Source: Nemertoderma westbladi
Lineage: Eukaryota > Animalia > Xenacoelomorpha
Direction of reading: 5' to 3'
DNA length: 64,000 nucleotides
Assembly (NCBI GenBank): GCA_032718475.1
Contig: JAUCBJ010001208.1
Coordinates: forward strand, 5,028 to 69,027
Shown: in pieces, positions 1-52,479 of the stretch
How positions within the stretch are numbered: the stretch's first letter is position 1
Layout of the letters: each line of letters starts with the position of its first letter
The notes under the pieces: generated by a model
The model's input: only the letters and a program-made list of their open reading frames with translations
Database searches by the model: none
What the model was told of the DNA's origin: nothing
Made by a program: the position numbers and the translations under genes

Positions 1-1647
1 TTAACCAATGAGACTGTAGTTATTAGATTGTAACCAATGTCGTACAAGTTATATATTTGCTGGACCAATAGCTATCTTTAAAAACCTATTAGAACTCATA
101 GAACAATCGAGAATTTTCTCGATTGATTGCGGCACAAATTTGGTATAAAAGGTGCGATTTCGTTCATTAGTACACCACTTCACACTTTATATCTAAAACC
201 TTCTATATCTCAATCATTCGTGCTTTAGATTATCTTTATTAGTTATCTATTAGTTTCTTGTTACGTTTATGTATATCTTCTGTAATAAAGTCAGAATTAT
301 CGCTAATCTGCCCTTTTTCTATCTGTTTTACTATACTTCACCACGGTGAACTCAACTGAGGGACAGGATGGCTGGCTAAACATCGGGCCACAGCAATGAA
401 CGGGAACATCTAAGGAATGTAGACAGGAGACAACCCGCAATATCACTCTTAGTTATTCGCCCATCGCCTGAAAGGTTAGACAGCGTTCGATGCCTTGCTA
501 CCTAAGTATAAGACCAAAGATCGAAGGTAGAGGTAGTGACACGCTGTACGCCTAAAATTACATCTAGGGACTGTACTGTTTTAATTCAGGAAAAAACCGC
601 AGTAGACCTTCATATTCCTACGGGGAGAGGAGAGAGCTCAGGCAGAGATACTAGTACGCAGATAGGACGTAGGCACACCGGTACAAAGCATACACATTGG
701 TAGGGTGCAGCAAACTGTACGCCTAACTCTTGCTAAGTACAGGTGCGTCTGTGACTATTTGTAGTACAACGGTGTCCATTGCATTATAACTTGTAGGCCA
801 GGAGGGTTACTGTGTTTCACCTGAATTAGGATTGTACCGTTCAGGCGGTAGGGCAGTTTACGGCTAGGCGCAAATAAATTGAGGCTAATTAGGGATACTA
901 ACATCTACCGTGTCCCCGCCGACATCCTGATAGGAAGTTACCAAGCCCACCTAGGTAACCAAAATTCTAGATAGGACGCCAGGCTAGCTATTAGTAATTG
1001 TACGCCTACTGTAGTAAACTAACACATTTCTTCTTAGTATTAGGGACCTGGTAAATAAAATTGCCGAATTCTGGGCGTAGTATTAACCTTATGCCTGAAT
1101 TTGAGTCCTGGAAATACATGAAAGGGGAAGGAGCCTTATCATTCGTGAGTATTGGACCTACAAGTTATAAAATTAGAATATTTGCAAAATGCACACCGTA
1201 CCCAGTAATTATATATATGAAGGAGCAAAACTGATCTTGACGGTTCAGAATTAACACACGCGCGTTAGAAATTATTTACACCTCAAAATATATAAAATTA
1301 ACTTTTGTCCGTACTGCGCTTTGCCCGCTAGTTAGACATCTCCAGATCTCTGCACCTAGCTAGCGTCCTTTTCGCCCAACCATATAAATCACACCGCGGC
1401 AAAGTATACGAGCCCCTTAGTCCGTCAGTGAGTCAGCCTGATTTTAGCGCGCGGGATTTTGTTTTATCGAAGTTTGTCCGTTCGTAGACTGTTTTCTGCC
1501 TCACCGGTTATAAGAGACCGATACTGCAATATATTCGCTTACTTGGAGTTTACTGTTTTGGTGAGAAGGTCGGATTTATGATTTGATTCACAAACTTTAT
1601 AGTATGATATTGCAGGATTCGTGTATTTGTTACTGTCTCTTCATATA
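1..1647 (+). repeat. 5' LTR of element A (partial, truncated by window start)
   Basis: Matches 17571-19224; identity ends at ...TCTCTTCATATA. Confidence 0.93.
5..152 (+). promoter_or_regulatory. LTR A Pol II promoter: three CCAAT boxes and TATA box
   Basis: CCAAT at about 5, 34 and 65, TATAAAA at 144-150; LTR C shows the same order (CCAAT x3, TATAAAA about 58618). Confidence 0.6.
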
Positions 1648-2450
1648 GTAGGAATATGTTTTACTGAACTACGGTTCGGTAGGACTAAAGTTATTTGAAA
1701 ATTTTGTATTTTGAGGTAAAAATTTATATTTGATTGGCTGAGTGCTAATTTTTTGAAATAAAATTTGATTTGAACCGCGTGTAAAATATTTTGGAATTGA
1801 ATACCGGTGTTTAAAAGGGTTTAAATACCATATTGTACCGGTACAAAATTTTTCGTAAAAGTAAAACCTAACTCTTTTGTTTTTCAGGATTCAGAACTCA
1901 TTTCTAGACTGTAACGAGAGCAAGACCGTGTTTAGCAAGTTTGGGAGATAGATAACCCAACAACTTTGGTTGGGAAAATCGCACTTCGTCTGCAACGCTG
2001 GAAACGGAAAGGTTCACGTCCGGTTTGTATCTGGGAATTTGTTTTTCTGGAGAATCATTGGAGTGGGTGAGTTTGAAAAGTTGCATAAATAAGTTAGGCA
2101 TTACCGTATTAGTTAAAAATTATTGTGGGTTCCACTGTCTCAAGTATTTATGCATTCTGTACGATTTCTTTGTTCATTGCTGAATTAGTCCGTATTATTG
2201 TATTTAATTTACCTTTTGATAACGCATATCGTTATCCGATTTATTTGTTATAAAATTGGCCGCTAGGCTAATTTTATTATCCGTGACATTTATTTGCTGT
2301 AAAATTGGCCGTTTAGGCTAATTTTATCCATTTGCTATAAAATCGGCCGGTAGACTAATTTTATATGACTGTAATTAGTACCGTTTAAATATAAATATGG
2401 TAAATTTGATACTTTGACACTCACATTTTACTTGACTTACAACTACCGAA

Positions 2451-2833
2451 ATGAGTGACAAACAAGACTATACGAAGAATACACCTACCGACTATGACTC
2501 ATGTGACGCGGATAAGTCAGCAGCGGAAGAACTACAGGGGAAGACTCGCGAGCCTACCGAACCTACACCGTGTGCGTCACCAGTACATCCAACGGGAGTA
2601 CCGGATGCCGTAGTACGAGGCGACGGCAGGACCGAGGACTTTCTAACTGTTCCGCAACCTAGATACAGGGAAACGGACATGGTAAGTTCAGCAGGAAGCC
2701 AGGAGAGCGTAGTTAGAAGCGTCGGAGGATACATGGCGCATATTACCAGGAGTATTGGAGAAGGCCAACGCATATTAGACGAGTTGACCGCTCCGATGTC
2801 TCGGTTTGAGTTCTACACCCTCCAGGTTAGAGT
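2451..2833 (+). pseudogene. gag: gag N-terminus of element A, interrupted by insertion of element B
   Basis: MSDKQDY...RSVGGYMAHITR...EFYTLQVRV is collinear with element C Gag (MSDTPHS...RSIGGHMAQITR...EFYTLQVRI); similarity stops at 2833 where LTR B starts. Confidence 0.88.
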
Positions 2834-3645
2834 TGTATTGTATTTGGTAAGAGTATAAAAAATTTATTTTATAATCATTATATTGTTCCGATAACTTCTA
2901 CTGTACGTTTAAAGTATAAAACCTATTCTATACCTATATTCTACTATATTAATTAACGAAAATCTTATGGATTCTCTTTAAAGTTAAGTTTGTTTCAGTT
3001 CCTTTACTTACTGCAGTAGAAATACTGTACGATTTATTATGTGAAATACTACCTGATTATATGATAAATCACCAGTAGGTTAATTGTCCAGTATCTATAA
3101 TTATTTCCAGATTATTATTATTATACAGTACAGTATAACTAAGCCCTGCTGGAGGTATTTTCAAATTAAGGCTTTTTAAACATGATTAGCCAATGACAGC
3201 CTTTGAATTCTTTATGCTTGTTTCAATGTAGAATTGAAGTTATATATATTCATTCATTACTCTGTTACTGCATTAAGTACCGCAGTACCGGTACGTTATA
3301 TGGTTTAATCTTTTACATTTGGACGTGTATTTAAATTTTGACAGTGTTGTTTTGCATTCAGATGTCTGATGTCTGGATGTCTTTGATATAAAACTGTGAT
3401 ACTGTGATACGATATTCAATATAATGTCTTAGTCGATTAGAACACGTTCAATAACATTGTTGTTCCTGATTAACGGATCAGATCGCATTCTGACATGAGT
3501 CAATTATCGAAAACATTCGCGATGTCCGGCTAAGATTAGCTGCGGTGTGGTGAGGCCGGCAATGGGATGTGGGACATCAGTGGCGGTACGGAAGCAAAAT
3601 TGGACTATCAGGGAAGTTGATCGAACCATTAGGCATAAGTTTGGG
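2834..3645 (+). repeat. 5' LTR of element B (portion shared with 3' copy; true end further right, possibly ...TTACA 4177)
   Basis: Near-identical to 10500-11311; CCAAT about 3190, TATAAAA about 3387. Confidence 0.88.
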
Positions 3646-5087
3646 CTCGCTAAAATTGGATTAGTAACTGTCAATCAATTGCCCCTGAGTGCTAAGGCTG
3701 TAGGCCAATTGGTGAAGGGGTTAGATTATAGTTTTCAGAGGCCCCTATATTGATTTATAATTCATGTACCGCCAGACCGGTAGCTAGGTCTACCATAACA
3801 CGTTAGGAATTCTAACTTACTAATTTTCTAATAATTATTTTAGATAGTTTGTGATCATTCTTAGGCCCTACGGATAAATTGGTGGTTATTATAGCGCTGA
3901 GGGAACATTTGGGATGGTAAAATAGTTAGGCCATTTAATTATTTCTTTCTCAGCCCTAGTATCCTAAATTCCGTATAGATTGACAACCAAACTGTTGTAA
4001 GTATAAAATTTATTTATTTGTTTATACATATTTTGAAAGATAAAAAATTAGTATTTGCTCGTTTTGGGATTAGTTAGAAGAGCCTACTGGTCTAGCATGA
4101 ATTACGAATTTTCAGCCATAATTGCTGTACATTCTGATATAGGTTTGGTTTATTATTTTGGTTGCTGGTGTTTTACAGTACTTTATATGTTAGCCTTTAC
4201 TGCCTGCCAAAATCGAACGACAAATATCTATTGAACTTACTTATTGTGAGCGCTGCTGTAAAAAGGTGTTGAGGTCTCCACCATTGAATTAAAACATTTA
4301 CTCGCAATAGCGATAGCTTTCCCTCAGTTTTGATCTCGGTTAATTCTGCCCTTTCGGGGGATTTGGGATTGCACTTAACAGAAATCAATATAAAAATAAA
4401 TCCCAGCTGATTTACAAAATACTTAGCAAATAACATTTTTAGAAAATAATCAGTCTTTCTGTAATTATTCCGTTTTGCAGAAATACAAAATATTTTCTGG
4501 GATTAAAATATCAGCTCCAAAATTATGTAAAGGAGGTTGAATAGATATTAGGTAGCCAAAAAGGTTAAAAATTTAAATTTAAAGTTTATTTGCAGGAAAT
4601 AAAATTAGTAGGCGCCGTTTAAAGTTTCTATACGACTTTCAGGTACAGAGGGAGACTTTCCAACTGATTCTGGGATCTGTTGATGTTTACGAGTTTGGTA
4701 CAAAAAAGAAGTTTGCAGAATGAAAATCTGCAGCTCAGATTGGGACGCGAGGAAAATTGAAACTGCTCCTGGGGTTAGTTGCATTACCTGTATCTCTGTG
4801 TCTGTGAGACCTGTGAAAGTTTTGCGGCAAGTTAATTTTATGATTTATTTAAATGCTTCCAGTTTGTCCACTATGTTTTAAGAACTCCACATCTTTGCCG
4901 TGCTGGGAAACCGTTACGCCTATTATATTTGTGTATAAAAAATATAATATTTGAAGGAAATATTAAAAATATTTTAGAAATTTTACCGCTGTAGAAGCAG
5001 CACAACTTCAAGTAAAATTAGAAAATATATTTAGATATATACTGTCCAGAAGGTTATACAGAAATACAGAATTAAAATTTACCGACC

Positions 5088-8000
5088 ATGAGTATGCATA
5101 GGACATCGACTATACAGGACATAACTCTAGTAGGTTCTGACTCAAACGATGACGAAATAGAGGAGGTGGTGAGAGTAAGTAGTTTAGATTCACAAAGAGG
5201 GCCACCGATAAGTAGGAGTGCTGGTGGGTATATGGCACAAATTACAAAGTGCACAAACAAGGTAATTACATTATTATTACAAGAGGGTGCTACATTAGAC
5301 AGACAAAAACTTTTGGAGTTACAAGGTAAGTTTAACACCCAGATGATCCATCCAGTAGCTGAACTACAAGCTCTTGTGGATAGAGCAGAAAAATATCAAG
5401 AGAATAAAACCCTGACTTTCTTATTCGAGAAATTGAAAAAGGCAAGAGTGAGTTATATAAGAGTAATTGAACACTTTTCCCAAATTCGTAATACACGATG
5501 GAGCGAAGCAGTTTGTGAATCTCTAACAGTCAATGAAGTCGAGTTTAGAGAATCAGAGAAACGTATTGTGGTTGAGACTCAGCATCGAGTTACTAAATTA
5601 ACCCGTTACTTAAGTAAGAGAGGAGTAGTTATCATTGGATTACCATTGCCATTAACTGCAAACCAAGAGACAGTGAGTGGGTTAAACAGTGGAGCGGAAG
5701 TTTTATCTGTTGCCAGCCAAAGCACAACAAGGTCGCGACGAAGTACGAGTGTAGTATGTAGTCGGAGTTCGATAACAGAATCACAAAAGGCCCTGCGAGC
5801 ATTCACAGAACGAGATAGACTAATTGCAGTTGAAGAGAGAAAGCTCGAAGTAGAGGAAGCGCGTAGGCAGGAAGTTGAACTCGCTGAAGAGGAGATACAT
5901 AAATTAGCAGCACAAGAAGCAGATTTAAAGCAGCAAGAGCAGCATGAGGAAGCAGCAGCTAAATTTAGGCGTGAAGCACAAGCTGCAGCCCAAGAAGCAG
6001 AGCATTTGCGTGATGAATTGCAGAGGCAACAGCGTGAAGCAGCGGCAAATTTAGCGCATCAACATGCACTGAGACGCGCACAAGTAGACGAAAAGCGAAG
6101 AGAATTAGAATTAAAGCAACGAAGGCGTATCCATGAGATTGAAATGCAACATAAGCGAGCTCAGTTGCAAGATGCACGGCTTGAGTTGGTAAATGATAGG
6201 CAGCAGTATGAAGAAAGAAGAAGAATTGCGAAACTCATAAAACGCGAGATTGGGATACGTTTACATATAACCTATTGGACTGATGCCACTTTAGTATTAA
6301 TGTACTTAAATATTGATGATGTACAATTTAAGACATTTGTTGCAAATCGGAAAGCCGAGATTTTAGATTTTACTATCAAAGAAGACTGGCGTCACTGTCC
6401 GGGTGATCGCAACCCCGCAGACATTGCCTCGCGAGGAATGATGCCGACGGAGTTTTGTCAACCAGATAATCAAGATTTCTGGCTGCATGGACCCAAATTC
6501 TTAAGGAAGTCAACAGAGCATTGGCCTCCAATCTTTCACTGCCACTTACATAAACTTCCACCGGAAGCGGAGATTAAGATCGAGAAAGTAAAGAAGTCAA
6601 AGGCGAAGGCCACAGGTTTATCCCATATACCAACATTATTGACTGATCAGGTAATGTCAAATAATTATATGGAGCGGCCGAGAAATGCCATGAGTGAACA
6701 GATGTTAGACAGAAATGAGATTACGTCCCGTACCACATTATATAATCTAAGATCGCGAGTGACACATACAAGTGATATAGTTCCTACGTCGTTACCACCG
6801 CCAAATCCGCCAGATTCAGATATTAATTTAGAGATTGAGTCCGAAGTTGACCTAGCCCTAGATATATCAGACGACGATGAATATATTGACATGCATCCAG
6901 TTCCTGGTGATGAAAAATTCGATGAAGTAAAAGCGATATTTCTAGAATCACCCTTGACCAATAGTAAGCAAGATCTTGTAAAAAATGTGGCATCACAGCC
7001 ACCGCCTAATGTTATGGTAACACAACCACTTAACAGTAATTTAAGGAATTTCTTTGACAGGTTAGTAAATTCCAGTTCATCTTGGCTAAAGCTATGTAGG
7101 AAAGCCGCTTGGATCAGTAGACTTAGTAAATTCTTGGGTAAATCAAAGGAATACTCACTATCTGATTGGAGACAAAGGGTTATTAGAGGATTTCCCAGGA
7201 GACTATCTATCGAGGAAATAGACCAGGCGGAATTGAAGATCATCCTTCATTTTCAGCTGCGAAGTTACACCCGTGAGTACAACGCCATTATGATTAAGAA
7301 AGCGGTTACTTCTTCCCCATTAGTCAGGTTGAGCCCGACCATACACAAAGGACTGCTTTGTCACAGGTCTAGATTACAAGCTACAGACCTAGCACGAGAC
7401 TTCATATATCAAATTATAATCCCGGCATACTTAGAATTACAATGCGCCATGATATGGGATGCTCACTTGAAGCTGAAACATGCTGGCCGTTCACATTGCA
7501 TCTCTTTGTTAAGACAACGTTTTATTTTAATAAAACCAACAAAGGCATTAAATACAGTTCTATCAAACTGTATAGTTTGTAAAAAGTTGAACGCACGCAT
7601 TACCCAGCAACAAATGAGTGAACTACCCTTAGCTAGAGTGCAGTCACACCAATCACCATTTACCCATACGGGACTGGATTGTTTTGGTCCAATCCTCACA
7701 AAGCGTGCACGGTCGATGGTAAAACGTTGGGGTGTCATATTCATTTGTATGGCATCCCGTGCGGTACACATTGAACGCGTCACAGACATGTCCACAAATG
7801 CCTTATTACTTGCTTTGCGTCGGTTCATAGCCAGACGCGGGTTGGTTCAGGCTTTCTCTAGTGACCAAGGTACGAACTTTGTCGGTGGGGACAACGAGAT
7901 TAATAAATCTCTTAATACTATTGACCATGATAAAATTGCTGCCGAATTAATACCCAGTCGTATCACATGGAACTTTAACACGGCTGACAGCCCCTGGAGA

Positions 8001-8657
8001 GGCGGTAGCTGGGAGCGTCTTATACGATCCATAAAATTGGCGTTCCATAAGACCATCCCACCGAACAAAGTACTCACAGATGATGAACTAGTGACTCTTT
8101 TCACAGAGATCGAGTATACTTTGAATTCTCGACCGATTGCACTGGTGCCAGACAGGTCAGACAACGTTATTGCCCTGACACCAAACCATATATTAATGCA
8201 ATCTCCCGCACCACTTGTACCAATCTCTGTCCCAGATGACAGCGATCTGTACTCCAGGAAAGCGTGGAAAATCGTACAATTGTTAGCAGATAACTTCTGG
8301 GAAATATGGCGACAACACTATTTGCCCACTATTTCAGCCAGAAGTAAATGGTATCAAACAACAAGGAATCTTTGTAAAGGAGATTCTGTTCTCTTAGCCG
8401 AGGCGAACCTAAAACGGCGTCACTGGTTAACAGGTGTTGTAATAGCGGTTCATCCAGGATCAGACGGAACAGTTCGAACTGTGACAGTTAGAACACTAGA
8501 CAAACATGTAGTAACTAGACCAGTGCAACATCTCGTTTTATTAGAAGAGTCACGTTGTCAGACTGGAGACTACAAAATCTTTAAAAAACCCAGTGATTAT
8601 ACTTCCCACAAATTATATGAGACAGGAAATGTAAAAACCTCCAAGAAGACAAAGTAA
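5088..8657 (+). CDS. BEL/Pao Gag N-terminus fused in frame to RNase H C-terminus and integrase (capsid core, protease and RT deleted)
   Basis: Coiled-coil Gag N-terminus; RNase H motifs YWTDAT and NPADIASRG; integrase HHCC (HLKLKHAG..CIVC), GLDCFGP, SDQGTNF, WERLIRS; Pao C-terminus (FWEIWRQHYL, HPGSDGTVRTV); no protease or YxDD motif. Confidence 0.9.
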   Translation: MSMHRTSTIQDITLVGSDSNDDEIEEVVRVSSLDSQRGPPISRSAGGYMAQITKCTNKVITLLLQEGATLDRQKLLELQGKFNTQMIHPVAELQALVDRAEKYQENKTLTFLFEKLKKARVSYIRVIEHFSQIRNTRWSEAVCESLTVNEVEFRESEKRIVVETQHRVTKLTRYLSKRGVVIIGLPLPLTANQETVSGLNSGAEVLSVASQSTTRSRRSTSVVCSRSSITESQKALRAFTERDRLIAVEERKLEVEEARRQEVELAEEEIHKLAAQEADLKQQEQHEEAAAKFRREAQAAAQEAEHLRDELQRQQREAAANLAHQHALRRAQVDEKRRELELKQRRRIHEIEMQHKRAQLQDARLELVNDRQQYEERRRIAKLIKREIGIRLHITYWTDATLVLMYLNIDDVQFKTFVANRKAEILDFTIKEDWRHCPGDRNPADIASRGMMPTEFCQPDNQDFWLHGPKFLRKSTEHWPPIFHCHLHKLPPEAEIKIEKVKKSKAKATGLSHIPTLLTDQVMSNNYMERPRNAMSEQMLDRNEITSRTTLYNLRSRVTHTSDIVPTSLPPPNPPDSDINLEIESEVDLALDISDDDEYIDMHPVPGDEKFDEVKAIFLESPLTNSKQDLVKNVASQPPPNVMVTQPLNSNLRNFFDRLVNSSSSWLKLCRKAAWISRLSKFLGKSKEYSLSDWRQRVIRGFPRRLSIEEIDQAELKIILHFQLRSYTREYNAIMIKKAVTSSPLVRLSPTIHKGLLCHRSRLQATDLARDFIYQIIIPAYLELQCAMIWDAHLKLKHAGRSHCISLLRQRFILIKPTKALNTVLSNCIVCKKLNARITQQQMSELPLARVQSHQSPFTHTGLDCFGPILTKRARSMVKRWGVIFICMASRAVHIERVTDMSTNALLLALRRFIARRGLVQAFSSDQGTNFVGGDNEINKSLNTIDHDKIAAELIPSRITWNFNTADSPWRGGSWERLIRSIKLAFHKTIPPNKVLTDDELVTLFTEIEYTLNSRPIALVPDRSDNVIALTPNHILMQSPAPLVPISVPDDSDLYSRKAWKIVQLLADNFWEIWRQHYLPTISARSKWYQTTRNLCKGDSVLLAEANLKRRHWLTGVVIAVHPGSDGTVRTVTVRTLDKHVVTRPVQHLVLLEESRCQTGDYKIFKKPSDYTSHKLYETGNVKTSKKTK

Positions 8658-10499
8658 AATAAAGTGTACTTTATTTTACTGTGGTGTTCTAGTGCTCGAT
8701 ATTCCAGTGTCTGTTATGTGTATTTCGGATTACGTCCGATTACACATAGGAGCGGATTATTGTGTACTGGAATACCGACAACACTTTTATTATTTATTAC
8801 ATCCCATTTGAATTTGAAAATCATATGAATTTCGAAAATGATATTGCTAAAAAATGTTACTACTAAAGTGTGTTTACAGTAGCGAGTCGCAGTTGTGAAA
8901 GTTACCCTACAAGAACCTGAAGTAATTCTAAGCCCTTGGGACGGACAGTGGAGTGACTCGTGCTGGTTGTTGTAGTCGTTGTGCAGCTACGACGTTGGCG
9001 ATAGGCACAGCGGCGACAATACATCAGCGCTGAGGATCTTGCGCTGTCCGGGCGGCATTGAGGGGGAGGCAGCTCACACGCTCCCTGATATATTTACAAA
9101 AAGTTAAATAATTTTAACTAGTTGATTTATTTAACTTTAAATTTGTGTCAAAAAGATTGGAGTACTACATCTGGAGGCTGTAACATTAAATTATTTTATC
9201 AAAAAGGGTCTCACAGATATATTGGCACGGGTATTGTAGCTGTCTTAGGGGTATGTTTAAAACATGTTTTGTAGAAGGGGAGACAGATCCCAAAATCAAG
9301 ATATCTCTTTATTGATTAACACTTTATTGACATAATTTCTCTCTAAATTTCTTAGATAGTAATAAAAAAAAAAAAAAAAAAAAGCGAATGATTTTGTTTC
9401 GCAAATGTCAAAATTTGGGGTCAGCGCTAGAATAAGATAATTTAATATCAATTGGTTGACAAACGCTGAACTGATGGAGGTAAACCCAGGCTTAGCTGAA
9501 AGTTTGTGATACTGTACCTGCCATTCATCCATCCATCAATAATCTTTCTATAAGTTACTAGTTACAGGATGGTACCGCATAAGAACCTGTTGACATACCC
9601 CATCGATTTGAACTGTGGATGCGATCGAAATATCTGGCGATACAGAAAAGATATTGCGCCATCTGATGGTTGATGAGTGGAAAAGGAGGGGGGGATGAAA
9701 GGTTCTACCCGAACTCCCATTGATACCGGCCATCAGCGGAGTTGGAACAGTAAGAAAGAATTCCAGAATACACAAATCCCATACGAGCGTTCGATGCGAA
9801 GTAATTGCGATTGGGCTGGATGTGACCGACGTTGTCACTGCCGATTGCAATACCAGGATTAGGGCGGGGTTTGAGATCCTAATATTTGACCCATTTCAGA
9901 CACAAATCAAACTAATGCGATCGAGAGCGAAGAATTTATGCTCAAGGCGATCATATATTTACCTAGTCATTCTTACTGTAACATTGGGATGTGTCAACGA
10001 GATAATACTACAACAAACCCTGCGCCCTTTAAATCCTGGAAACCAATACCATCGTCCCACTGGTATTTTTTTTATAAGTCTTATATGCTTAACGTCTTAT
10101 ATGCTTACCGTCTTATATGTTTACCTAATCATATATTAGCCTCAATTTATTTACGATGTTAACAAATATTTCACGAACTCATTCGATTTATATTATTTAT
10201 GCCTTAGTAAAAGGTAGTTACTACCTGACAAGGTACTAAAAGTGAACCGGACTCTTACAATATTTTAAGAAAATGTGTAAGTCAGTCCTATTATTATGCA
10301 AGATATTTTATGTAATAATTGAAATAATTCAGATAAATCTTTGTGTTATAGGTAGTATGTTATACAATTGTATGTCCTTTTGAAATATTGATAAATTTAG
10401 ATTAATCTAGTATATTCTACATAATTTTATATAGTAGTTTTAGATTTATTCGGTATGTCCGGTGATGGGATCAGAGCGTTAAACGTCTGATCGGAGCGG

Positions 10500-11311
10500 T
10501 GTATTGTATTTGGTAAGAGTATAAAAAATTTATTTTATAATCGTTATATTGTTCCGATAACTTCTACTGTACGTTTAAAGTATAAAACCTATTCTATACC
10601 TATATTCTACTATATTAATTAACGAAAATCTTATGGATTCTCTTTAAAGTTAAGTTTGTTTCAGTTCCTTTACTTACTGCAGTAGAAATACTGTACGATT
10701 TATTACGTGAAATACTACCTGATTATATGATAAATCACCAGTAGGTTAATTGTCCAGTATCTATAACTATTTCCAGATTATTATTATTATACAGTACAGT
10801 ATAACTAAGCCCTGCTGGAGGTATTTTCAAATTAAGGCTTTTTAAACATGATTAGCCAATGACAGCCTTTGAATTCTTTATGCTTGTTTCAATGTAGAAT
10901 TGAAGTTATATATATTCATTCATTACTCTGTTACTGCATTAAGTACCGCAGTACCGGTACGTTATATGGTTTAATCTTTTACATTTGGACGTGTATTTAA
11001 ATTTTGACAGTGTTGTTTTGCATTCAGATGTCTGATGTCTGGATGTCTTTGATATAAAACTGTGATACTGTGATACGATATTCAATATAATGTCTTAGTC
11101 GATTAGAACACGTTCAATAACATTGTTGTTCCTGATTAACGGATCAGATCGCATTCTGACATGAGTCAATTATCGAAAACATTCGCGATGTCCGGCTAAG
11201 ATTAGCTGCGGTGTGGTGAGGCCGGCAATGGGATGTGGGACATCAGTGGCGGTACGGAAGCAAAATTGGACTATCAGGGAAGTTGATCGAACCATTAGGC
11301 ATAAGTTTGGG
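10500..11311 (+). repeat. 3' LTR of element B, truncated by deletion
   Basis: Matches 2834-3645, then joins directly to the integrase of element A. Confidence 0.88.
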
Positions 11312-12165
11312 TCCTGTCCAGTAGGGCAGTTCATATTGAACGTGTGATGGATCTTTCCACCAACGCGTTTATACTAGCATTGCGGCGATTTATTGCTAGA
11401 CGCGGATTAGTGAAATGCTTGTACTCAGACCAAGGGACAAACTTTGTTGGTGCCCGAAATGAAATTGCTAGAGCCTTTAAGAAATTAGATCATGATCAAA
11501 TCTCAAACGAACTACGTCCTTACAAGATTGTTTGGAAGTTTAATCCTCCAGATAGTCCATGGAGAGGCGGAGTCTGGGAGAGATTGATTAGATCTATAAA
11601 AACAGCCATGGCAAAAGTAATTCCAGTAAACCACATTTTGACAGACGACCAACTGACAACACTGTTTGTTGAAATCGAGGCAATACTAAATACTAGACCA
11701 ATAGTATTAGTACCCGATGACAAACAATCTCAGTTTGCTTTGACACCGGCACACCTGCTTATGCAGGCACCGACTACATTAACGCCTATTTCTTTTCCAA
11801 TGGAAGGCGATAGCTACGGTAGAAAAGCGTGGAAAATCACGCAACTACTAGCTAACAAATTCTGGGAAATATGGCAAAACCATTATTTGCCCTCTATTTC
11901 TGCCAGAACAACATGGTACAATAACACCCGCGCATTAAAGCCGGGAGATCACGTGCTGTTAGCAGAAGTGAATCTAAAAAGACGCTTCTGGATAACAGGT
12001 GTAATTTTAGACACACATCCATCTATGGATGGAGTAACAAGAACTGTGACGGTACGGACAATTGACGGTCGTACAGTTGACAGAACGACTCAACATCTCG
12101 TACTTCTTGAAGAGACTCGAAACGAGTCTGGAGACTACAAATCTCCAACAAATGTTAGTAAATAA
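11312..12165 (+). pseudogene. BEL/Pao integrase catalytic core and C-terminus of element A (5'-truncated)
   Basis: LSSRAVHIERV, SDQGTNFVG, WERLIRSIK, FWEIWQNHYL; clearly homologous to element B integrase. Confidence 0.92.
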
Positions 12166-12825
12166 TTAGGAGTTTACAAATAGATTTCCATGTATCTGTA
12201 CACTGTAGTAAAGACAGCGGTAGAATTCCATTGTCTTTATATGTGAACATTGAGGGTAGTACCCTTATGTGTCACATAGGAGCGGGATTTGTAGGTATAA
12301 GAAATGGAATTCTACTTGGAACTCACAATATTGAGACATTTTCGAAATTTTAGACAATCCATTTGGATTTGAAAAATTTTTAAAATTTTCTCCAGTGAAT
12401 AGATTTCAGGGTACAGTCGGGTGGAACTTAAAATTAGAGAAACAAGAGAGGAAGACTTGCGAGCCTTTCTTAAAATTTTAATTAAATTTTACACGGTCTT
12501 GTTTCAATAAGTTACGTCAATATATAGACTTCCCTATATTTATTACTAATTCTTGACTGCTTATTTCTGATAATAGTTTGGGATCAAAAAGTGAGTATTT
12601 TAGACTCACAGCCAGTTTAGCCCAAAATCGTTTTTATTTCGGCAAAAATTTTAGATTAGAAGCAGCGTGTCATTAAAGAAACCCTAGATCTTAGGCTATG
12701 GGTAGGAGGTTAGAGCGTTGTCGAGCCAAAAGGGCAGACGAAAACTCTCACATCTCCTCACAACTAACTACAAACTCTGTTGTATTCCCTCTAGTAGTAA
12801 TGATTATGTAACTGCACCTCTAATT

Positions 12826-14994
12826 ATGGAGAAGGAGATACATGGAGAGCCGAGATGGGGATATGATATCCAAGAGGAAGCAGCAGCGCCATTCGAGAGA
12901 TTTGGAGCCAAAGACTACACTATATTTGGTATAAAAGAATTATCAGAAAGTACTGCGAAACTCGCGAGAACTAAATATGACTCGAATGTATTAAAGAGAA
13001 GGCAAAACGCATTAAATGAAAGAATCGAAAGTTTGCGCAAAACCTTCAATGAACTTTACCCGTACGACGCTTTGTGTGATACGGGAGACATTAGCGAAGA
13101 CCCCGATACTGAAATTAGTCGTTTGTATCATACCATGCAATACCTAAAGACGCACGAACCTATGCCTGCGGTACGAGATGAATTTGATGGAATGCATCTT
13201 TACAGACGAACTCGAGGGGACGATAGAGAAACAAAGGAAGCATTTTCAGTTTATAAACTTTATTATCAATGTGGTTCTTGTATGCGCGAACAACGAAATG
13301 CGATTCCGATGCGTTTGAATAAGGAAAATCCCGAACCGATATTGGCGAGGTGTTCGAACCATCAACGACTACGCTACCAGGAAGGAGGGTATCCTTTATC
13401 AAATCCATATCATTCGTTTGCTATGACTGGACCAAAGGCGGGAGAAACTGTCGTTTACCCACCTAAGGTTGTTGAACCCAATGCATTTGAACTTACGCTG
13501 GATGAGGCGAATCAGTCAACCCGCGAAAAGAAAGAAGCTCTTAGCCTATACAGAGCCTACAAGGCTTTTGAGAAAGGTGAGATGGAAGAATGGGGCGGAA
13601 GACTCGCGAGCCTACCTTACCATTGGACGTCACACGATCAAACTCCAGCTAAGGAGATGACACCGGAAGTTTTCGAGAGCATAAACTTTGCTCAAAATGT
13701 TATTCAGAGACTACAGATTGCATCCCCGGAGAGGACAAGAGAAATGCAACCATATAGTACTTCGACTACGAAACCATTGAGTACGACACTCAATTTTCCT
13801 ATTAGTATACCAGTCCGACAGGATACGACGTACGAAATACTCATCGTGGATCATCCAGAAATTATTTCGAACTTGGAGTTTCTTCCTGCAGTTGTTTTTA
13901 GCGATATAAGTAAGATATATGATTTACGTAGACATATTACTCAAAAGGTCGTGTATAACGTTCTACCTCATATTCAAGACTTTAGAGAATTGGATAGAGC
14001 TGGTGCTGATATAGCTCCGAGTAATTTGAAAGGATATTTAACCAAAACGATTCGTTTATGGATTGGAACTGGAACCTTCGAGTCGGATACAGATATTGCC
14101 GCGGATTGGCGAGGTAAGGTTATTCGTTTCGAAGATGATAAGGACATAGAGAAGATTTGGCAACCTTCGGAAGAATTGTTGGACGAATGGAATAGAACGT
14201 TTAGATCGTTTCAGGAAAATGGTTACATGTTTTACGATAACGAGGGCGGCAGTCATCAACAGAGTTTGACTTCTAAGACTATACAAATTAGAGCGGCGGA
14301 CGGAGTCTTGCACGTTTTCAGTAGACAGAGGAGCGACAAACGAATGCCGATACCTCCAGCAAATACAAAGCGACACCATCTCATCACTGACATAGTAAAG
14401 AAGATGGACCAAGCTTGTAATATCGATGCTAGAATGCTACCGAAGATGGTAAGAAATATGATTTTAGATAAAACTGTTGTAAAGATTGGATCAGGAGTAA
14501 GAGAGGACTTAATTAGCGACTTCGCCGACATGACGGACAGCGATGACCGACTACCGACACCGTACGTCGACACTCGACCTCTTATCTTGTGGTCTATAGA
14601 ACAAGGGTATTTTCGTGAGTATAATACTCAGAAGACCGGAACTGGATACATTTCCTACCTGTTATTCAATTGGGATTATAAGGAAAGTAAGAGAGCCAAG
14701 TATATTGAGACTTATGGAGAAGGTGATACTCCAGATATGAGTGAGTTTGAATCACAGCTCAAATGGAGAGGATGCGTGTATTGGGCTATTACGTCACCTC
14801 CAAGAGCGGTCCTACAATATTATTTAGCAATAGAGTCATCAGTGAATGTTTGCTTAATCGCCGACATTGTGTCTCAGACTCTTAAAAGACATCCACTTTG
14901 TCTCGGAGATGATCATACGTTCTACAAGGAAGGGAGAATTCATACCGACGTGTTTAGACGATTTCTTGAATGCCTTTACTCGAGCAGGATTTAG
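12826..14994 (+). CDS. Accessory ORF of element A, part 1: N-terminal CxxC..CxxH and WRN/EXD-like DEDDy 3'-5' exonuclease domain
   Basis: ExoI FYDNEG (14230-14247), TIQI..VLHVF, LPKMVRNMILDKTVVKIGSGVRED (ExoII D 14506), YVDT, W..PP...QYYLAIE (ExoIII-like 14815-14835); first ATG at 12826. Confidence 0.72.
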   Translation: MEKEIHGEPRWGYDIQEEAAAPFERFGAKDYTIFGIKELSESTAKLARTKYDSNVLKRRQNALNERIESLRKTFNELYPYDALCDTGDISEDPDTEISRLYHTMQYLKTHEPMPAVRDEFDGMHLYRRTRGDDRETKEAFSVYKLYYQCGSCMREQRNAIPMRLNKENPEPILARCSNHQRLRYQEGGYPLSNPYHSFAMTGPKAGETVVYPPKVVEPNAFELTLDEANQSTREKKEALSLYRAYKAFEKGEMEEWGGRLASLPYHWTSHDQTPAKEMTPEVFESINFAQNVIQRLQIASPERTREMQPYSTSTTKPLSTTLNFPISIPVRQDTTYEILIVDHPEIISNLEFLPAVVFSDISKIYDLRRHITQKVVYNVLPHIQDFRELDRAGADIAPSNLKGYLTKTIRLWIGTGTFESDTDIAADWRGKVIRFEDDKDIEKIWQPSEELLDEWNRTFRSFQENGYMFYDNEGGSHQQSLTSKTIQIRAADGVLHVFSRQRSDKRMPIPPANTKRHHLITDIVKKMDQACNIDARMLPKMVRNMILDKTVVKIGSGVREDLISDFADMTDSDDRLPTPYVDTRPLILWSIEQGYFREYNTQKTGTGYISYLLFNWDYKESKRAKYIETYGEGDTPDMSEFESQLKWRGCVYWAITSPPRAVLQYYLAIESSVNVCLIADIVSQTLKRHPLCLGDDHTFYKEGRIHTDVFRRFLECLYSSRI

Positions 14995-16522
14995 TATATT
15001 TCGAGACGTGTATCTTCGCTGTGCGGGATCTCTTATCGAAAGACCGTCTATGTTTACATTGTTACCCTATGAAGGAGAACGTATCGTGGAGATTACGGAT
15101 GAATCACGGCAGACGCGCGCGCCTATCGGTCACCTTGGTGATGATTTCGAAGTAACGACTACGATCACTGACGATCCTTTAGAGGAACTTCTTGAGATAG
15201 AAAGGAACCTCCCGAAGAAATCTCAGACGGAGATTCGACAACTTGAAGCAACAGATGCTGTAGTTTGTATACAACCTTCAGAAACCTACCAACCCATAGA
15301 TCCAGATGATTATGATTATAGTGTGGGAGGAAGCGCTCGACCAATTGGAGATCTTATATACGAACGAGTGTGGTACCCTGCCAATACGATGTGTGGTAAA
15401 TGTGGTGTCGCTGGACATCATTCGACCAAGTGCAGTGGAAAGCACATTACTACGACTCAACTAATCTGTGGATGGTGTGGAGATCAAGGGTCTCATACCT
15501 TTTATACTTGCTGGAGATTTATGGCTCAATGTACTTATTGCAATATAAAAGGGCATCGAGCATCTGAATGCCAACTAAGAGACATACCTTATGAACACGA
15601 ATCTGTAAAACTCGTGAGAAACCTATTCGATGAGTGGGAAGATTTAGCCGACGAACATGTATCGGCACAAAGAAGACGATTTCCGATGAGAGCGCATCTT
15701 GGATTTTGGGCGGTAAATCCCCAAACGATGATGTCGGAAGGATACATCTCCGCTATGCCCCAATATGACGAACTTATCGAGGTAGTCGATATTTTGCCTC
15801 ACGACAGTGGATTCCGAGTGGTGCGTGAGTATCTATTACAGATTCACCCGGACAACAAGAACACGTGGAATTTTCAGAAAGTCGTAAATCGTATCACGTA
15901 TGGTGAATTTGATCGTTTCCGAACTGAAAAGCGGAATAAGGGAGCTTGGTTAACCGTCGCATGGGCATACTGAGCCGCGTTTTACCACAAACGTATACGA
16001 GCGAGCGTGTTCGAGGAAGAGGAGATCCTAGAGGTGACAAATATACCAGCCACTCCGGTTGAGCCGTCTGCACGTCACCCTTGGGAGGACGGACAGGGTA
16101 GGATCATAAGGGTCCAGAAAGTGAGCCAACAATTAAAGAAGTCTATTAATATAGAAGAACGCAAGGGAGTTGAGCCGACCATTCGAATTACTCGGGATAC
16201 GGTATCGCTTCCTAGAGAACCAACAGGAGGATCGGGACATACACCAGCTGATCAAAAGGGGGCGCAAGCTACTCTTGGGTCTGCGTCGTCCGCTTCCCGC
16301 GCGTTCCCAGACGTTTTACCAACTGTAGTGACAACTGATCGGTCACGAGGAATCGGTCGAGGTTTTGGGATACCAAATAGACGAATTTGTGAGGAAACGG
16401 TCGCACCGTCTCCCAACGTACAAGCGAAACCAGTAACTCGCCCCACGAGTCCCATATCGCGGGCAAAGTCACCTGTGCGCAGTTTTCGAGGACGCGGCAG
16501 GGCTCGATCTACTAAGCGATAA
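14960..16522 (+). CDS. Accessory ORF of element A, part 2: three CCHC zinc knuckles and a Pro/Arg/Gly-rich tail (continues part 1 after a frameshift; in-frame TGA at 15971)
   Basis: CGKCGVAGHHSTKC, CGWCGDQGSHTFYTC, CTYCNIKGHRASEC (15392-15571); ORFs 14867-15973 and 16007-16522 share a frame; RGRGR tail. Confidence 0.75.
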
Positions 16523-17292
16523 AAGGGAGGGCAAGGGTGGACGGAAGATTCGTGAGCCTTTCTTGTGAATTTGTGATTTATTTGATTAGTAAGTTTTGTA
16601 TTCTGGAAGAACTCATATTTAGTAAGATTTATATTTAGTAAGAATTTATATTTTGCAAGATTTATATTTTATATTTGTGATTATTCCGAACTTATGCAAT
16701 TTATATTGTTCCGAATACTATGCAATTTATATCTTATAAGCAGTATTTGTATTTACAGTGAAATAGAAAGTAAGAGTAGATGGAAGACTCGTGGGCCTTT
16801 CTTATAGTTTCATTTGTAAAGTGTTATATTTGTATTTAGAAAGTTTTATAGTTAGAAAGTTTTGTACTTAGAAAGACTCATATTTGTAATTATTCCGAAC
16901 TTATGCAATCTACATTTAGGCACGAAAGTATTTGTAATTATTTGAATTTATGCAATATTTGAGATGCAATAGTAGATGGAAGACTCGCGAGCCTTTCTTA
17001 TGATTTTCATTTATTTGTATTTGTAATTATTTGAATTTTGCAATATTGAGATGCAATAGATTTATATTGGTGAATTTAATTTAGATTTATATTGTACTTA
17101 CTTAGTAAAGCCTTAAATACGTAAAGTTTGAATTTGTAATTATTTTGTATCGAATCATTATGTAGAAAGGAAGTATTGTTTGAAATTTAATTTGTAAATA
17201 TGTAAGTACGCCCTAAGTATTCTATAATTTGATTGATTATTGGTGAAAACCGTATATTTTATGCACGATAATATCCTGTTTTCATGGAGCGG

Positions 17293-19224
17293 TATAGAAT
17301 TATATTCTCTAAATGCCGTGGATTTTCAAAATTTTTATTTTATTCGAATTAACTTTGTTAAAAGATTACATTAAGTCCTCATTTGTATTTGCTATATCTA
17401 TTTGTACGATGATTAGTCAAGTGGTTCAGTAGCTCAGTCGGTAGAGCGTTGGAAATTATATGTAGTGTGTATTGAGTTCGAATCCTAGTAGGTGCGAATT
17501 ATTTTTTGTGCAGAATTTCAACTCATTTAAATTGACCGCTACAAATTAATTGCATTTGCTCGAAGTAAGATTAACCAATGAGACTGTAGTTATTAGATTG
17601 TAACCAATGTCGTACAAGTTATATATTTGCTGGACCAATAGCTATCTTTAAAAACCTGTTAGAACTCATAGAACAATCGAGAATTTTCTCGATTGATTGC
17701 GGCACAAATTTGGTATAAAAGGTGCGATTTCGTTCATTAGTACACCACCACACACTTTATATCTAAAACCTTCTATATCTCAATCATTCGTGCTTTAGAT
17801 TATCTTTATTAGTTATCTATTAGTTTCTTGTTACGTTTATGTATATCTTCTGTAATAAAGTCAGAATTATCGCTAATCTGCCCTTTTTCTATCTGTTTTA
17901 CTATACTTCACCACGGTGAACTCAACTGAGGGACAGGATGGCTGGCTAAACATCGGGCCACAGCAATGAACGGGAACATCTAAGGAATGTAGACAGGAGA
18001 CAACCCGCAATATCACTCTTAGTTATTCGCCCATCGCCTGAAAGGTTAGACAGCGTTCGATGCCTTGCTACCTAAGTATAAGACCAAAGATCGAAGGTAG
18101 AGGTAGTGACACGCTGTACGCCTAAAATTACATCTAGGGACTGTACTGTTTTAATTCAGGAAAAAACCGCAGTAGACCTTCATATTCCTACGGGGAGAGG
18201 AGAGAGCTCAGGCAGAGATACTAGTACGCAGATAGGACGTAGGCACACCGGTACAAAGCATACACATTGGTAGGGTGCAGCAAACTGTACGCCTAACTCT
18301 TGCTAAGTACAGGTGCGTCTGTGACTATTTGTAGTACAACGGTGTCCATTGCATTAGAACTTGTAGGCCAGGAGGGTTACTGTGTTTCACCTGAATTAGG
18401 ATTGTACCGTTCAGGCGGTAGGGCAGTTTATGGCTAGGCGCAAATAAATTGAGGCTAATTAGGGATACTAACATCTACCATGTCCCCGCCGACATCCTGA
18501 TAGGAAGTTACCAAGCCCACCTAGGTAACCAAAATTCTAGATAGGACGCCAGGCTAGCTATTAGTAATTGTACGCCTACTGTAGTAAACTAACACATTTC
18601 TTCTTAGTATTAGGGACCTGGTAAATAAAATTGCCGAATTCTGGGCGTAGTATTAACCTTATGCCTGAATTTGAGTCCTGGAAATACATGAAAGGGGAAG
18701 GAGCCTTATCATTCGTGAGTATTGGACCTACAAGTTATAAAATTAGAATATTTGCAAAATGCACACCGTACCCAGTAATTATATATATGAAGGAGCAAAA
18801 CTGATCTTGACGGTTCAGAATTAACACACGCGGGTTAGAAATTATTTACACCTCAAAATATATAAAATTAACTTTTGTCCGTACTGCGCTTTGCCCGCTA
18901 GTTAGACATCTCCAGATCTCTGCACCTAGCTAGCGTCCTTTTCGCCCAACCATATAAATCACACTGCGGCAAAGTATACGAGCCCCTTAGTCCGTCAGTG
19001 AGTCAGCCTGATTTTAGGATTCGCTGCGCGGGATTTTGTTTTATCGAAGTTTGTCCGTTCGTAGACTGTTTTCTGCCTCACCGGTTATAAGAGACCGATA
19101 CTGCAATATATTCGCTTACTTGGAGTTTACTGTTTTGGTGAGAAGGTCGGATTTATGATTTGATTCACAAACTTTATAGTATGATATTGCAGGATTTGTG
19201 TATTTGTTACTGTCTCTTCATATA
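17293..19224 (+). repeat. 3' LTR of element A (about 1.93 kb, TATA...TATA termini)
   Basis: Start inferred from GGAGCGG at 17286-17292, the same signal that precedes LTR B; end from loss of identity with the 5' LTR. Confidence 0.82.
17423..17507 (+). ncRNA. tRNA-derived Pol III A-box/B-box module in U3 of LTR A (not a functional tRNA)
   Basis: TAGCTCAGTCGGTAGAGCG (D-arm GCTC/GAGC), GAGTTCGAATCC, downstream T-run; acceptor and anticodon stems do not form. Confidence 0.65.
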
Positions 19225-24781: not shown

Positions 24782-26359
24782 CCCTATTAGTACCGGGCTA
24801 TAAAATGTTGTACAAATACCGGAGGGGGGGTCATATTGACCCCCCCTCTAAAATCTACAAATATTTACGAAAACGTCTGATTTTTTGTTTGTACGTAGGT
24901 ATCACTTGTCTGGATCCGACCGAAAAAAAAAATTTCGAAAGAATGTACTTGGGTGGTTATATTGCAGCACCAAATTTACAAGTAGTGCACAATTTTCACA
25001 AAATTTGAAAGTTACATTTTCGGCTTAATTATTTTTCAATACAGGTTTTCTGGGGCGCAAAATACATTGGAAAATATTTAAAAATAATATGATTACTATA
25101 AATGGCTGTTTAGTCCTCTCTGCGTAGGAAAAAAATGAAAAAAACAAGTAACCAGCACTTTTCAGTTAGAACACAAAATTTTTAATTCACTTATACGATG
25201 CTATAAATTCACATTTTCAGGTTTTCGAGGGCCCTGATTCTAATGGAATACATTTCTTATATGCCAGATCATTGCTACTTGTATTTTTCGGCGTAATTTG
25301 GCAGATTTTGGTGCTAGCACCAAATTTCGTACCCATTACCAAAAAAGTACAAGTTTGCGATGTCCAGTGCTGTTTTTATTGATTCCATCGGATTCAGGAC
25401 CCTCATAAACCCGTATAACGCAAAAAACAAGATAATACTATCTTCTGATCAATTTGTTTATTTTCCAAAATTTGGTGCTGGCACAACAATTTTCACCCAC
25501 CGGCAAAAAAAATACAAGTTTGAGAACTCTTATGAAATTTTTGCTGATTCCATTGAATTCAGAACCAGCAGAAACCCGTATAACGCAAGAAACAAGGTGA
25601 CACAATCAATTGATTTATTTGATGGTTTTCAAAATTTGGTGCTAGCACCACATTTTGCACCCACATCCGAAAAATACAAGTTTGAGATGTCTAGTTCGAT
25701 AATTATATATTCAATTGAATTCAGAACAGCCATAAACCTCTAAAACGCAAGAAATAAATTGTCACAAGCAATTTTATCTATTGAATTAATTTTCAAAATT
25801 TCGTGCTAGCACCAAAATTTGCACACAGCACCGAAAAATACAAGTTTGATACGCTTGGTGCAACTCTTATATATTTAATCGAAACCAGAACCCCAAAAAA
25901 CCCCAATTGCGTAAATAACAAGTTTCAAACAATCAATTTACAAAATTGACATATTTCAAAATTTGGTGCTGGCACCACAATTTGGCACCCACCGAAAAAA
26001 ACAAGTTTGAAATTTCTAAATCAATTTATATGAATTACATCCAATTGTTAACACCAAAATACCGCTGTAAATCAAAAATTGAGATGTTACAATTCATATT
26101 TAATGAAATGTAATATTCAAAAAACGTCTCAAAAAAAGTGCCAAAAGTAGGGTTAAAAAATGGTGCTATAACACGAAAACTACCCTATATTTTTGAAAAA
26201 GGTTTTCACTACGAGGAAGACAATAGATTTTTAGGAAAAGTCAAAAAATTTCAGATTCCCAACTGCGTTTGTTTCAGAATTATAATAAAAAAAACACGAG
26301 GGGGTCATATTGACCCCCCCCCACCACCCCCCCCCCCCCCCCCCCCGTGTTTAATAGGG
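24782..26359 (+). mobile_element. Non-autonomous piggyBac-like element, copy 1
   Basis: TTAA|CCCTATTA...TAATAGGG ends, subterminal GGGGTCATATTGACCCC palindromes, internal tandem units of about 120-130 bp; second copy at 54286-55892. Confidence 0.78.
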
Positions 26360-36597: not shown

Positions 36598-37692
36598 GCA
36601 CCCATGACATTTGCTAGATCATCCGCTTCTTCAAGGCCAGTGTCCTTTAAGATGCGTCTCAAGAAAGTCATGGGCTGCCACCATGCTTATTCAGTCCATG
36701 AGGCTGCCAAAGTATAAGTTTATGCACTGGCTGGTCCTCACGGTGAAAGCAATGTCCTGCAAAGCAGAGGCGATTTTGTTCTAGTGTCAAGCTTGGGGGA
36801 ACCAAAGAGACACCTCCAATGTTATATAGTGTCTGGTTGGAGATGTGTGCATTGTACTTGACACAATGTACCCGGCGTAGCATTCTTGTGAATGTGCCAT
36901 CCAGAGATTTGGTGTCCGCAGCAGTTAGAGCCCAACATGGACTCTCATAGAGAGGTACTGGAACTACTGCTGCTCTAAATAATCGGACCTTAAGTTTCCG
37001 ATTAATTCTCGGTGACTTCCAAATCCTGCAAAGCATATTCAAGGCTGCCCAATGCTTTCCCTTACGCATTCGAAGGTCCTCATCTGACTTCCGGATCCAT
37101 GATCCCAGGTAACATAAGTCGTCCACATGCTCAAGCATACCATCCTTTGAGCTTATGCTCATCCGATCAGAGACTTGCTGAGGACTTTCAAAGTTAACTG
37201 TCAAAAGTTTGGTCTTTCTGGAGTTAATAAAAAGACCAACACTAGAAGCAGCATGTTCTAATGAGCTGAGGAGCCGTTGGGCTCCCTCTAATGATTCTGA
37301 GAGTACTCCTAAGTCATCAGCAAAGTCTAGATCAGTTAGGTACTTGGCAGGATTTCCTCGACTTCTGGAGCCAGTAGGTGGAGTTATCATCACCCCATCA
37401 TCATTATGATGATCTAAGGACGTGCGTAGAACATAGTCAACCACAATTATGAACAAGAATGGTGCAAGTGTGTCTCCCCGGAGGACGTCCCATTACACTT
37501 CAAATGGTTCTCTGTCACCGTCAACAGTAGAGACAAATGTTATCGAACCATCGTATACTGATCTGATTGCTGCAATAATTTCATCAGGAATCCCATATAA
37601 TGAAAGTATGCTGAACATACGTGAGAGAGAGACTGAATCAAAGGCCTTGAAGAAGTCAACAAAGATAACAGCCAGATGCCTATCTTTCTTTT
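36598..37692 (-). pseudogene. RTE-clade LINE reverse transcriptase, truncated and frameshifted
   Basis: FVDFFKAFDS, GDTLAPFLFIIVVDYVLR, DLDFADDL, CYLGSWI, RLCFAGHC. Confidence 0.9.
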
Positions 37693-39460: not shown

Positions 39461-39711
39461 GCTTAGGTTTATACTGTATATTAATTCATTTTGGTCACAT
39501 ATGACCGTAATTAATCAATATTAACTCGAATGATATTACTATATCTATAGTTCATCCGTTTTAAATAAAGCCAATATAATATTGATCCCGCGCATATACT
39601 GTAGAAGATGCGACAATGAACGTGGTCACAGATGTCTATAATTTAACATTATACTGTACTGTATGTACAATGGAGTCAAGTAGAGAGAGAGCTTAAATAA
39701 TAATAATAATA

Positions 39712-40584
39712 ATGGCCACAGATACATATATCACTCTACTTTCAGATAGCTCATTAAACACTTACCCCAATAATAATCCTAGTGAGTTTACTGTTGATTT
39801 AGCCGAAGAATTATATATTGGTCCAAACGCTAAAATTGGGCTTGCCGAGCTACAATACCAAGCAACATACAGTAATATTACACTGCAAACTCAAATCTCG
39901 CTGTCAATCGGGGTAGATGCAAAAGATGCCAAATTATATAGTTTATTTCCTGGTATGCATAGCTCTATTCAAGTGATTATTGATGATATAAATAAACTGT
40001 TTAATTCTGAAGCGAAATATAGAGATTTCGAATTCATTTTTAATACAAATAATTCTAGAATTAAATTTAAATTTCCTAAAAAGTTGAAAAAAATACAATT
40101 AAGTCTACGTGGTGATTTAATACAAATTCTAGGCTTAAAACCGTTATTGGATCGGAATCATCCAGGTATTCCGAATTGGGATATATACAGTACCACTACA
40201 GTAGATGAATTAAGCAATATAGAACAGCCGATATTAATTTTAAATTATAGCGGACCAAAAATTTCGGAAATTGGCATTTTAGATTTTCCAGCTCCCACGA
40301 ATATAACACGTAATAAAGACACTATCTTTATATATACAGATATTATTAAGAGCTCATTTGTTGGTGACGCTTTAGCTCCGCTCTTAAGAACCTGCCCTTT
40401 AACGCAATTAAATCGAAAATATATTAATCACGATTACGAGAGCATTTGCTATTACCCGTTGTTGAATAAAAAACTAAAAACAATCTTAATTACTTTACGT
40501 GACGGACAAGGCGAATTAATTAATTTTAGCGGAGGTCGCACTGTTATAACACTTAAGTTAATACGGGGTGGCAGTGATGGATGA
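39712..40584 (+). CDS. Polinton minor capsid (penton-like) protein 1
   Basis: YITLLSDSSLNTYPNNNPSEFTVDL; IFIYTDII..SFVGDALAPLLR; ITLRDGQGELINF..GRTVITL. Confidence 0.82.
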   Translation: MATDTYITLLSDSSLNTYPNNNPSEFTVDLAEELYIGPNAKIGLAELQYQATYSNITLQTQISLSIGVDAKDAKLYSLFPGMHSSIQVIIDDINKLFNSEAKYRDFEFIFNTNNSRIKFKFPKKLKKIQLSLRGDLIQILGLKPLLDRNHPGIPNWDIYSTTTVDELSNIEQPILILNYSGPKISEIGILDFPAPTNITRNKDTIFIYTDIIKSSFVGDALAPLLRTCPLTQLNRKYINHDYESICYYPLLNKKLKTILITLRDGQGELINFSGGRTVITLKLIRGGSDG

Positions 40585-41422: not shown

Positions 41423-41423
41423 A

Positions 41424-41984: not shown

Positions 41985-41986
41985 TA

Positions 41987-43246: not shown

Positions 43247-43248
43247 GT

Positions 43249-43704: not shown

Positions 43705-43735
43705 TTAATCATTTAGCTTTTGTTTATCAGATAAA

Positions 43736-52416: not shown

Positions 52417-52479
52417 AATAATAATAAATACGAAAAATATTACAAGTGATAAATTTTAAACCGTATCGCTGTAATAAAT

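Follow-up and report, generated by a model that had tools for sequence, protein, structure and literature searches.

Self-priming is an established mechanism in the LTR retrotransposon Tf1; in its gypsy relatives and one copia lineage it has been predicted. It is reported for Tf1/sushi elements and Tcn1, and by prediction for the copia element TAR (PMC6317226, PMC4600332, excerpts). The Tf1 primer is about 11 nt long and is cut by the RNase H of the element (PMC7175516, excerpt); a three-duplex structure is described around the PBS (bioRxiv 2022.12.06.519325, excerpt), and the Tf1 cDNA ends 3' with the PBS sequence (PMC11042837, excerpt). In Tf2, inclusion of the primer is regulated through start-site choice (PMC5341516, excerpt). 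Fungal GalEa elements have no PBS either, in a different way (PMC5445492, excerpt). For the Belpaoviridae, the ICTV profile gives an 18-nt PBS for tRNA-Arg or tRNA-Gly, LTRs of 0.2-1.2 kb and genomes of 4.2-10 kb (PMC8742986). By term search, the main text of a BEL/Pao survey (PMC3118150) does not mention primer, PBS or tRNA, and the excerpts of PMC3601003 and PMC3286476 hold nothing further on BEL/Pao priming. No paper on BEL/Pao self-priming was found in a search of article listings and abstract openings outside the subscription journals and Repbase.

The window, which is the whole stretch of DNA analysed here, comprises 64,000 nt of Nemertoderma westbladi (assembly GCA_032718475.1, contig JAUCBJ010001208.1, positions 5,028 to 69,027, forward strand). 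It contains three related LTR elements, A, B and C, with B nested in A (Table 1). Pfam finds DUF5641 in A and B and a weak DUF1759 in C, and among 939 database relatives the 120 listed ones have PF05380 (Peptidase_A17) and PF18701, which are BEL/Pao domains, at 33-40% identity; on these gag/pol domains and those of the relatives, the assignment to BEL/Pao made in the earlier note holds. Like Belpaoviridae (Semotivirus), these elements have a DUF1759 gag, a DUF5641 integrase tail, LTRs and a polypurine tract, and all listed relatives have Peptidase_A17. Unlike that family, A and C have no 18-nt PBS complementary to a tRNA 3' end, their LTRs are longer, there are extra 3' ORFs, and even the listed relatives are just 33-40% identical; given the anomalous PBS, the filing as BEL/Pao rests on the proteins. 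Since the domains are BEL/Pao and not those of Ty3/gypsy chromoviruses, the elements are not members of the Tf1/sushi group. No reverse transcriptase match was found by Pfam in the ORFs of A and B, and C is cut by the window end; the present copies of A and B would thus be unable to move autonomously.

Table 1. Features of elements A, B and C in the window; positions are those of the window.
Feature	Positions	Strand	Remarks
5' LTR of A	1-1647	+	cut by window start; 99% identical to 17571-19224
TATA box of A	144-149	+	after CCAAT boxes at 5, 34 and 65; equivalent in C at 58618; from motif scan and A/C alignment; presumed function
Predicted 5' splice donor	475-480	+	AAG/GTTAGA in A; canonical AAG/GTAAGA at 58967 in C; aligned
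Candidate self-primer of A	611-621	+	exact complement of 1648-1658; identical in 3' LTR at 18181-18191
Predicted helix arm of A	627-647	+	pairs with LTR end 1626-1645; adjoins primer duplex; not found in C
PBS-position 11-mer of A	1648-1658	+	no TGG
Predicted branch point, pyrimidine tract and 3' splice acceptor	1867-1887	+	conserved between A and C; 60737-60743 in C
gag N-terminus of A	2451-2833	+	interrupted by B; 65% identical to gag start of C over 127 aa
Nested related element B	2834-11311	+	LTR from 2834; second LTR 10500-11311; ORF 5076-8657
Remaining C-terminal part of integrase, assigned to A	11305-12165	+	DUF5641 (Pfam)
Extra ORFs in A, after integrase	12706-16522	+	3.8 kb; predicted 3'-5' exonuclease-like domain and CCHC knuckles; a lead only
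Polypurine tract of A	17286-17292	+	GGAGCGG; same motif precedes second LTR of B
3' LTR of A	17293-19224	+	1932 bp; TA...TA ends; 99% identical to 5' copy
5' LTR of C	58120-60396	+	2277 bp; TG...CA; only LTR of C in window
C motif aligned with primer of A	59089-59100	+	6 nt complementary to PBS-position sequence of C
Candidate self-primer of C	59119-59129	+	11 nt: 10 exact pairs (59120-59129) and one G.U
PBS-position sequence of C	60397-60407	+	no TGG
gag of C	61327-64000	+	runs off window; weak DUF1759 at its end (Pfam)

The ends of the LTRs decide where a primer-binding site should be sought. For A, the two copies differ in 16 alignment columns, none of them within 611-621, and their flanks diverge after ...CATATA, which establishes the end at 1647 that had been claimed earlier; the 3' copy starts directly after the purine tract, hence its length and its TA...TA ends. 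The earlier note had placed the end of LTR C by homology. This placement now has canonical ends beside it and is well supported: the region aligned with the start of LTR A opens with TG at 58120 (local alignment score 161.5, against at most 135 in 300 shuffles), and CA at 60395-60396 directly precedes the PBS-position sequence, although it still rests on homology and canonical ends because the 3' LTR of C is absent from the window. A start of LTR C at 58150 (TGTA...TACA) was dropped, as the alignment puts it at 58120. The terminal dinucleotides of A (17293-17294 and 19223-19224) and C differ at both ends in a matching fashion. A block of about 150 nt in the 3' part of the LTR (1378-1520 versus 60030-60165) is 73% identical between A and C, above the rest of the LTR, and is a candidate packaging or 3' end signal.

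It had been claimed that no tRNA primer-binding site is present and that the sequence at its position pairs with a segment inside the LTR of the same element. Indeed, no TGG occurs within 60 nt after the end of LTR A or LTR C, both complements have the coordinates and letters reported, and in both elements the pairing begins at the first base 3' of the LTR. Of 899 other start positions per element, 2 in A and 2 in C have an exact complement of equal length, the composition-based chance estimate is 6e-4 (A) and 3e-3 (C), and with G.U pairs allowed an equally stable anchored helix was found at 6/300 control starts in A and 4/300 in C, the figures for C having been computed with 58150 as the lower bound of its LTR; by these exact counts, and by the energy version, the match lies beyond chance. 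Among the 40 listed of the 274 substitution rows in contigs of four runs over 1-5200, none falls in 611-621 or 1648-1658. Both PBS-position sequences match contiguous LTR sequence, and a search for a splice-junction primer, in which the PBS would be complementary to an exon-exon junction in the LTR, gave no GT-AG split match of at least 10 nt in A, C or B. Rfam has no match over LTR A and eight sub-threshold ones around LTR C, none of them a ribozyme. A 19-nt motif common to A and C hit two metagenome loci, both by chance, and no viral contigs.

In these respects A and C resemble Tf1 and Tf2 of Schizosaccharomyces pombe, Tj1, Tf1/sushi elements and Tcn1, which have no tRNA PBS and about 11 nt after the LTR that are complementary to their own LTR RNA; the complement length of 10-11 nt also equals that given for the Tf1 primer in the excerpt cited above. 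The differences from the Tf1 group are the BEL/Pao proteins, LTRs of 1.9-2.3 kb and the location of both halves in a predicted intron. Moreover, the Tf1 primer is nucleotides 1-11 of the RNA, whereas the segment of A lies about 440 nt past the predicted start. A further parallel is found in TAR, Houba and Osr-1 of the plant Ty1/copia elements, for which self-priming was predicted from sequence in an otherwise tRNA-primed superfamily (PMC6317226, excerpt); these belong to another superfamily in another host kingdom, and the putative primer of A and C would be internal.

The earlier note had further argued that both halves changed together between A and C. This stands in part, as the halves are matched in two families. 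However, the PBS-position sequence starts with GTAGGAA in both, so 7 nt are common by descent and the two cases are not independent, and the difference may be read, as judged by eye, as a single 1-nt indel mirrored in both halves, together with a wobble. The A/C alignment (score 123.5; maximum of 200 shuffles 82.5) places 59089-59100, and not the full match of C, opposite 611-621; the full match belongs to a related motif that lies 30 nt further downstream, and a match at a shifted copy would fit a site that is kept for pairing. Element B, whose integrase is 64% identical to that of A over 277 aa, is uninformative or negative. Its ORF has a gag start and an integrase but no reverse transcriptase match, and its second LTR is cut by a deletion running into the integrase of A. 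Contigs break at 4336 (run X1) and 4330 (run X2), and depth falls from about 440 to about 200, which puts the end of the B LTR near 4330-4336. No TGG lies within the 27 nt after this likely end, no helix better than -8.6 kcal/mol was obtained from starts 4322-4344, and no splice-junction complement from starts 4320-4345. An AT-rich 11-mer at 4382-4392, one base past TTAACA, matches 3746-3756; this match was not taken as a self-primer because of the contig breaks and the approximate halving of depth at 4330 and 4336. B thus offers no convincing complement and neither supports nor clearly refutes self-priming.

Whether the segment is internal to the transcript depends on where transcription starts. 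The TATA box lies 467 nt (A) and 502 nt (C) upstream of the segment. The predicted donor is conserved in A and C, the conserved acceptor region lies about 240 nt (A) and 350 nt (C) past the PBS, and one contig of run X4 joins 474 to 1888, skipping 1413 nt with GT..AG ends. This joint is a weak hint, as it comes from a single contig with a short side of 22 letters in a run only guessed to be DNA. Among nine runs, no RNA run was listed as carrying the sequence, which gives no information about expression. Conservation of the sites in both elements, together with the joint, argues for transcription from upstream of 475, and so from upstream of the segment. The predicted intron spans both the primer segment and the PBS of A, which suggests that splicing removes the two halves from the mRNA and that the segment has an internal position in the transcript. 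The earlier claim that the segment sits about 450 nt into the transcript receives indirect support from the conserved upstream donor and the one joint; an RNA starting near 611, as in Tf1, is less likely but conceivable, and folding favors the pairing only in this shorter RNA of A. AATAAA is found in A at 284, upstream of the primer, and at 873 and 1054, downstream of it; LTR C has no AATAAA, and its ATTAAA motifs at 59424 and 59854 are downstream of the primer. Such poly(A)-type signals downstream of the primer make a long R possible. Contig depth, which is incapable of showing transcript ends, was not used to locate R.

Predicted RNA structure gives a mixed picture. In A, the best site within 622-1617 for the 20-mer before the PBS is 627-647, starting 6 nt after the primer, and the resulting helix resembles one arm of the three-duplex structure of Tf1; C is without it. 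For the upstream arm of A, 2 of 15 shuffles reached an equal score at some place in the LTR, which leaves the position of the helix as its one notable feature; for the downstream arm, 1 of 15 did, and for the arms of C, shuffles were as strong in 6/15 (upstream) and 4/15 (downstream). The flanking pairing of A ranks 15th of 1586 windows of 30 nt, 96th of 1556 at 45 nt and 306th of 1526 at 60 nt, and no flanking helix is present in C (rank 1032 of 2186, again with the bound at 58150). When the A RNA is folded from 611, ten pairs of the primer duplex have probabilities of 0.89-1.0 and the eleventh 0.22; in the A RNA from 175 and in both C RNAs the duplex is not formed (pair probability <0.01), and forcing it costs 8.0 kcal/mol (A from 175), 1.0 (A from 589), and 16.5 and 3.6 (C), while folding of RNAs of 1.1-1.9 kb is unreliable both ways.

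Considering these observations together, the feature is real and, on sequence evidence from two families, most likely reflects self-primed reverse transcription in a BEL/Pao lineage, possibly with an internal primer; self-priming in some form we regard as probable. More specifically, we tentatively propose, with a probability of roughly 0.45, that A and C prime minus-strand DNA with an LTR-internal segment of their own unspliced RNA and not with a tRNA. Transcription would start near 175 from the CCAAT/TATA promoter. The mRNA spliced from the donor at 475 to the acceptor at 1887 would lose primer and PBS and serve translation, while in the unspliced RNA 611-621 would pair with 1648-1658. The RNase H of the element, presumably as in Tf1, would then cut this RNA after 621 and leave a 3' OH that faces the final base of the LTR. 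Because the primer would be copied during plus-strand synthesis, the PBS would be written anew in every cycle and the two halves would stay matched. If the same molecule serves as primer and template, the cut at 621 would end strong-stop DNA at 622, and the RNA 3' end, and with it the end of R, would have to lie further into the 3' LTR than 622. A primer taken from a second RNA molecule would lift this constraint. The exonuclease-like ORF of A could, speculatively, encode a primer-trimming enzyme. In favor of the internal primer is a complement in register in two families with 65% gag identity; against it are a primer that would carry a 450-nt tail and offer plus-strand copying no evident reason to halt at 11 nt, the restriction to two families, the AATAAA of A at 284, the failure of the A RNA from 175 and of both C RNAs to fold into the duplex, and a C segment that has no positional orthology to that of A. 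The full scheme, in which a mid-transcript LTR segment replaces the tRNA, splicing separates a primer-less mRNA and the element's own 3'-5' exonuclease may finish the primer, is doubtful as a whole.

It is also conceivable, if unlikely, that the elements prime exactly as Tf1 does, with the replicating RNA beginning at about 611 through a second start or a processed 5' end and the TATA box at 144 driving the spliced mRNA only. TCATATT at 610-616 fits an initiator consensus. In the RNA of A folded from 611, ten of the 11 duplex pairs have a probability close to 1, the complementarity ends at 10-11 nt in both A and C, and the start-site switch of Tf2 includes or excludes its primer (PMC5341516, excerpt). 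Set against this are the absence of a clear TATA upstream of 611 and of 59120, and the C RNA, which does not form the duplex when folded from 59120. A quite improbable reading takes the pairing as an RNA structural element for packaging, dimerisation or control of the 475-1887 splicing, with another RNA as the primer. Long-range U5 pairing is frequent in LTR elements, both halves lie inside the predicted intron, and in A extra pairing flanks the duplex on both sides; yet on this reading the exact coincidence of the helix end with the LTR boundary, seen in both families, would go unexplained, and no primer site is left.

A host tRNA half or other small RNA that pairs with the GTAGGAA core and primes, the LTR match being secondary, would account for the identity of the first 7 nt in A and C, and copia lineages with half-tRNA primers are known (PMC6317226, excerpt). 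However, full pairing of one RNA with both PBS versions is impossible, the LTR-internal matches would go unexplained, and the match between the U3 tRNA-like segments and the PBS is just 5 and 4 nt long. This reading is slightly harder still to credit. The least likely of all is chance, namely an inherited 7-nt inverted match with an accidental extension of 3-4 nt in each family. In its favor are n = 2, an energy background of 1-2% per element and, in B, 2 of 1430 positions that reach an 11-nt match through composition alone; but two separate extensions would be needed, whose odds from base composition are about 1 in 200 and 1 in 50, atop an ancestral match exactly at the PBS position, and chance offers no primer.

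If self-priming is true here, BEL/Pao would be the third superfamily with this mechanism, in contradiction to a family definition by tRNA priming; if the primer is internal, it would not need to be the RNA 5' end. The internal primer predicts an RNA 3' end at 621, plus either a long R or priming by two RNA molecules. Self-primed elements of this kind would be overlooked, or given wrong ends, by annotation tools that depend on a tRNA PBS.

The extra ORFs of A deserve separate mention. Residues 480-762 resemble a PF01612 3'-5' exonuclease in an Atlas feature search (0.92; 24/30 hits), and one distant relative, P0121 of 648 aa, matches, with weak PF01612 and zf-CCHC scores. Pfam, PDB and word-index searches returned no hits, and a single-sequence fold was unusable (pLDDT 31); a part of this ORF in primer trimming is speculation drawn from the predicted domain.

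The U3 region contains a degenerate tRNA-like segment with A-box- and B-box-like motifs (17429-17496 in A, 58257-58334 in C), aligned between the families and called by ARAGORN at relaxed thresholds only. It is possibly a Pol III or TFIIIC element. As a primer it was rejected for its PBS matches of only 5 and 4 nt.

Other features lie between and beside the elements. Just upstream of C is a long near-perfect hairpin (57348-57432) with sub-threshold miRNA-family scores only. By eye, the ORF cluster at 39697-52455 looks similar to an element of Polinton/Maverick type, with putative B-family polymerase-like (47373-50120) and capsid-like (41933-43246) ORFs; neither ORF has a Pfam match. A fragment on the minus strand at 36668-37492 looks by eye like a LINE-type reverse transcriptase. 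A 1.5-kb repeat with internal 165-bp units is present at 24885-26334 and 54397-55889, its copies 90% identical.
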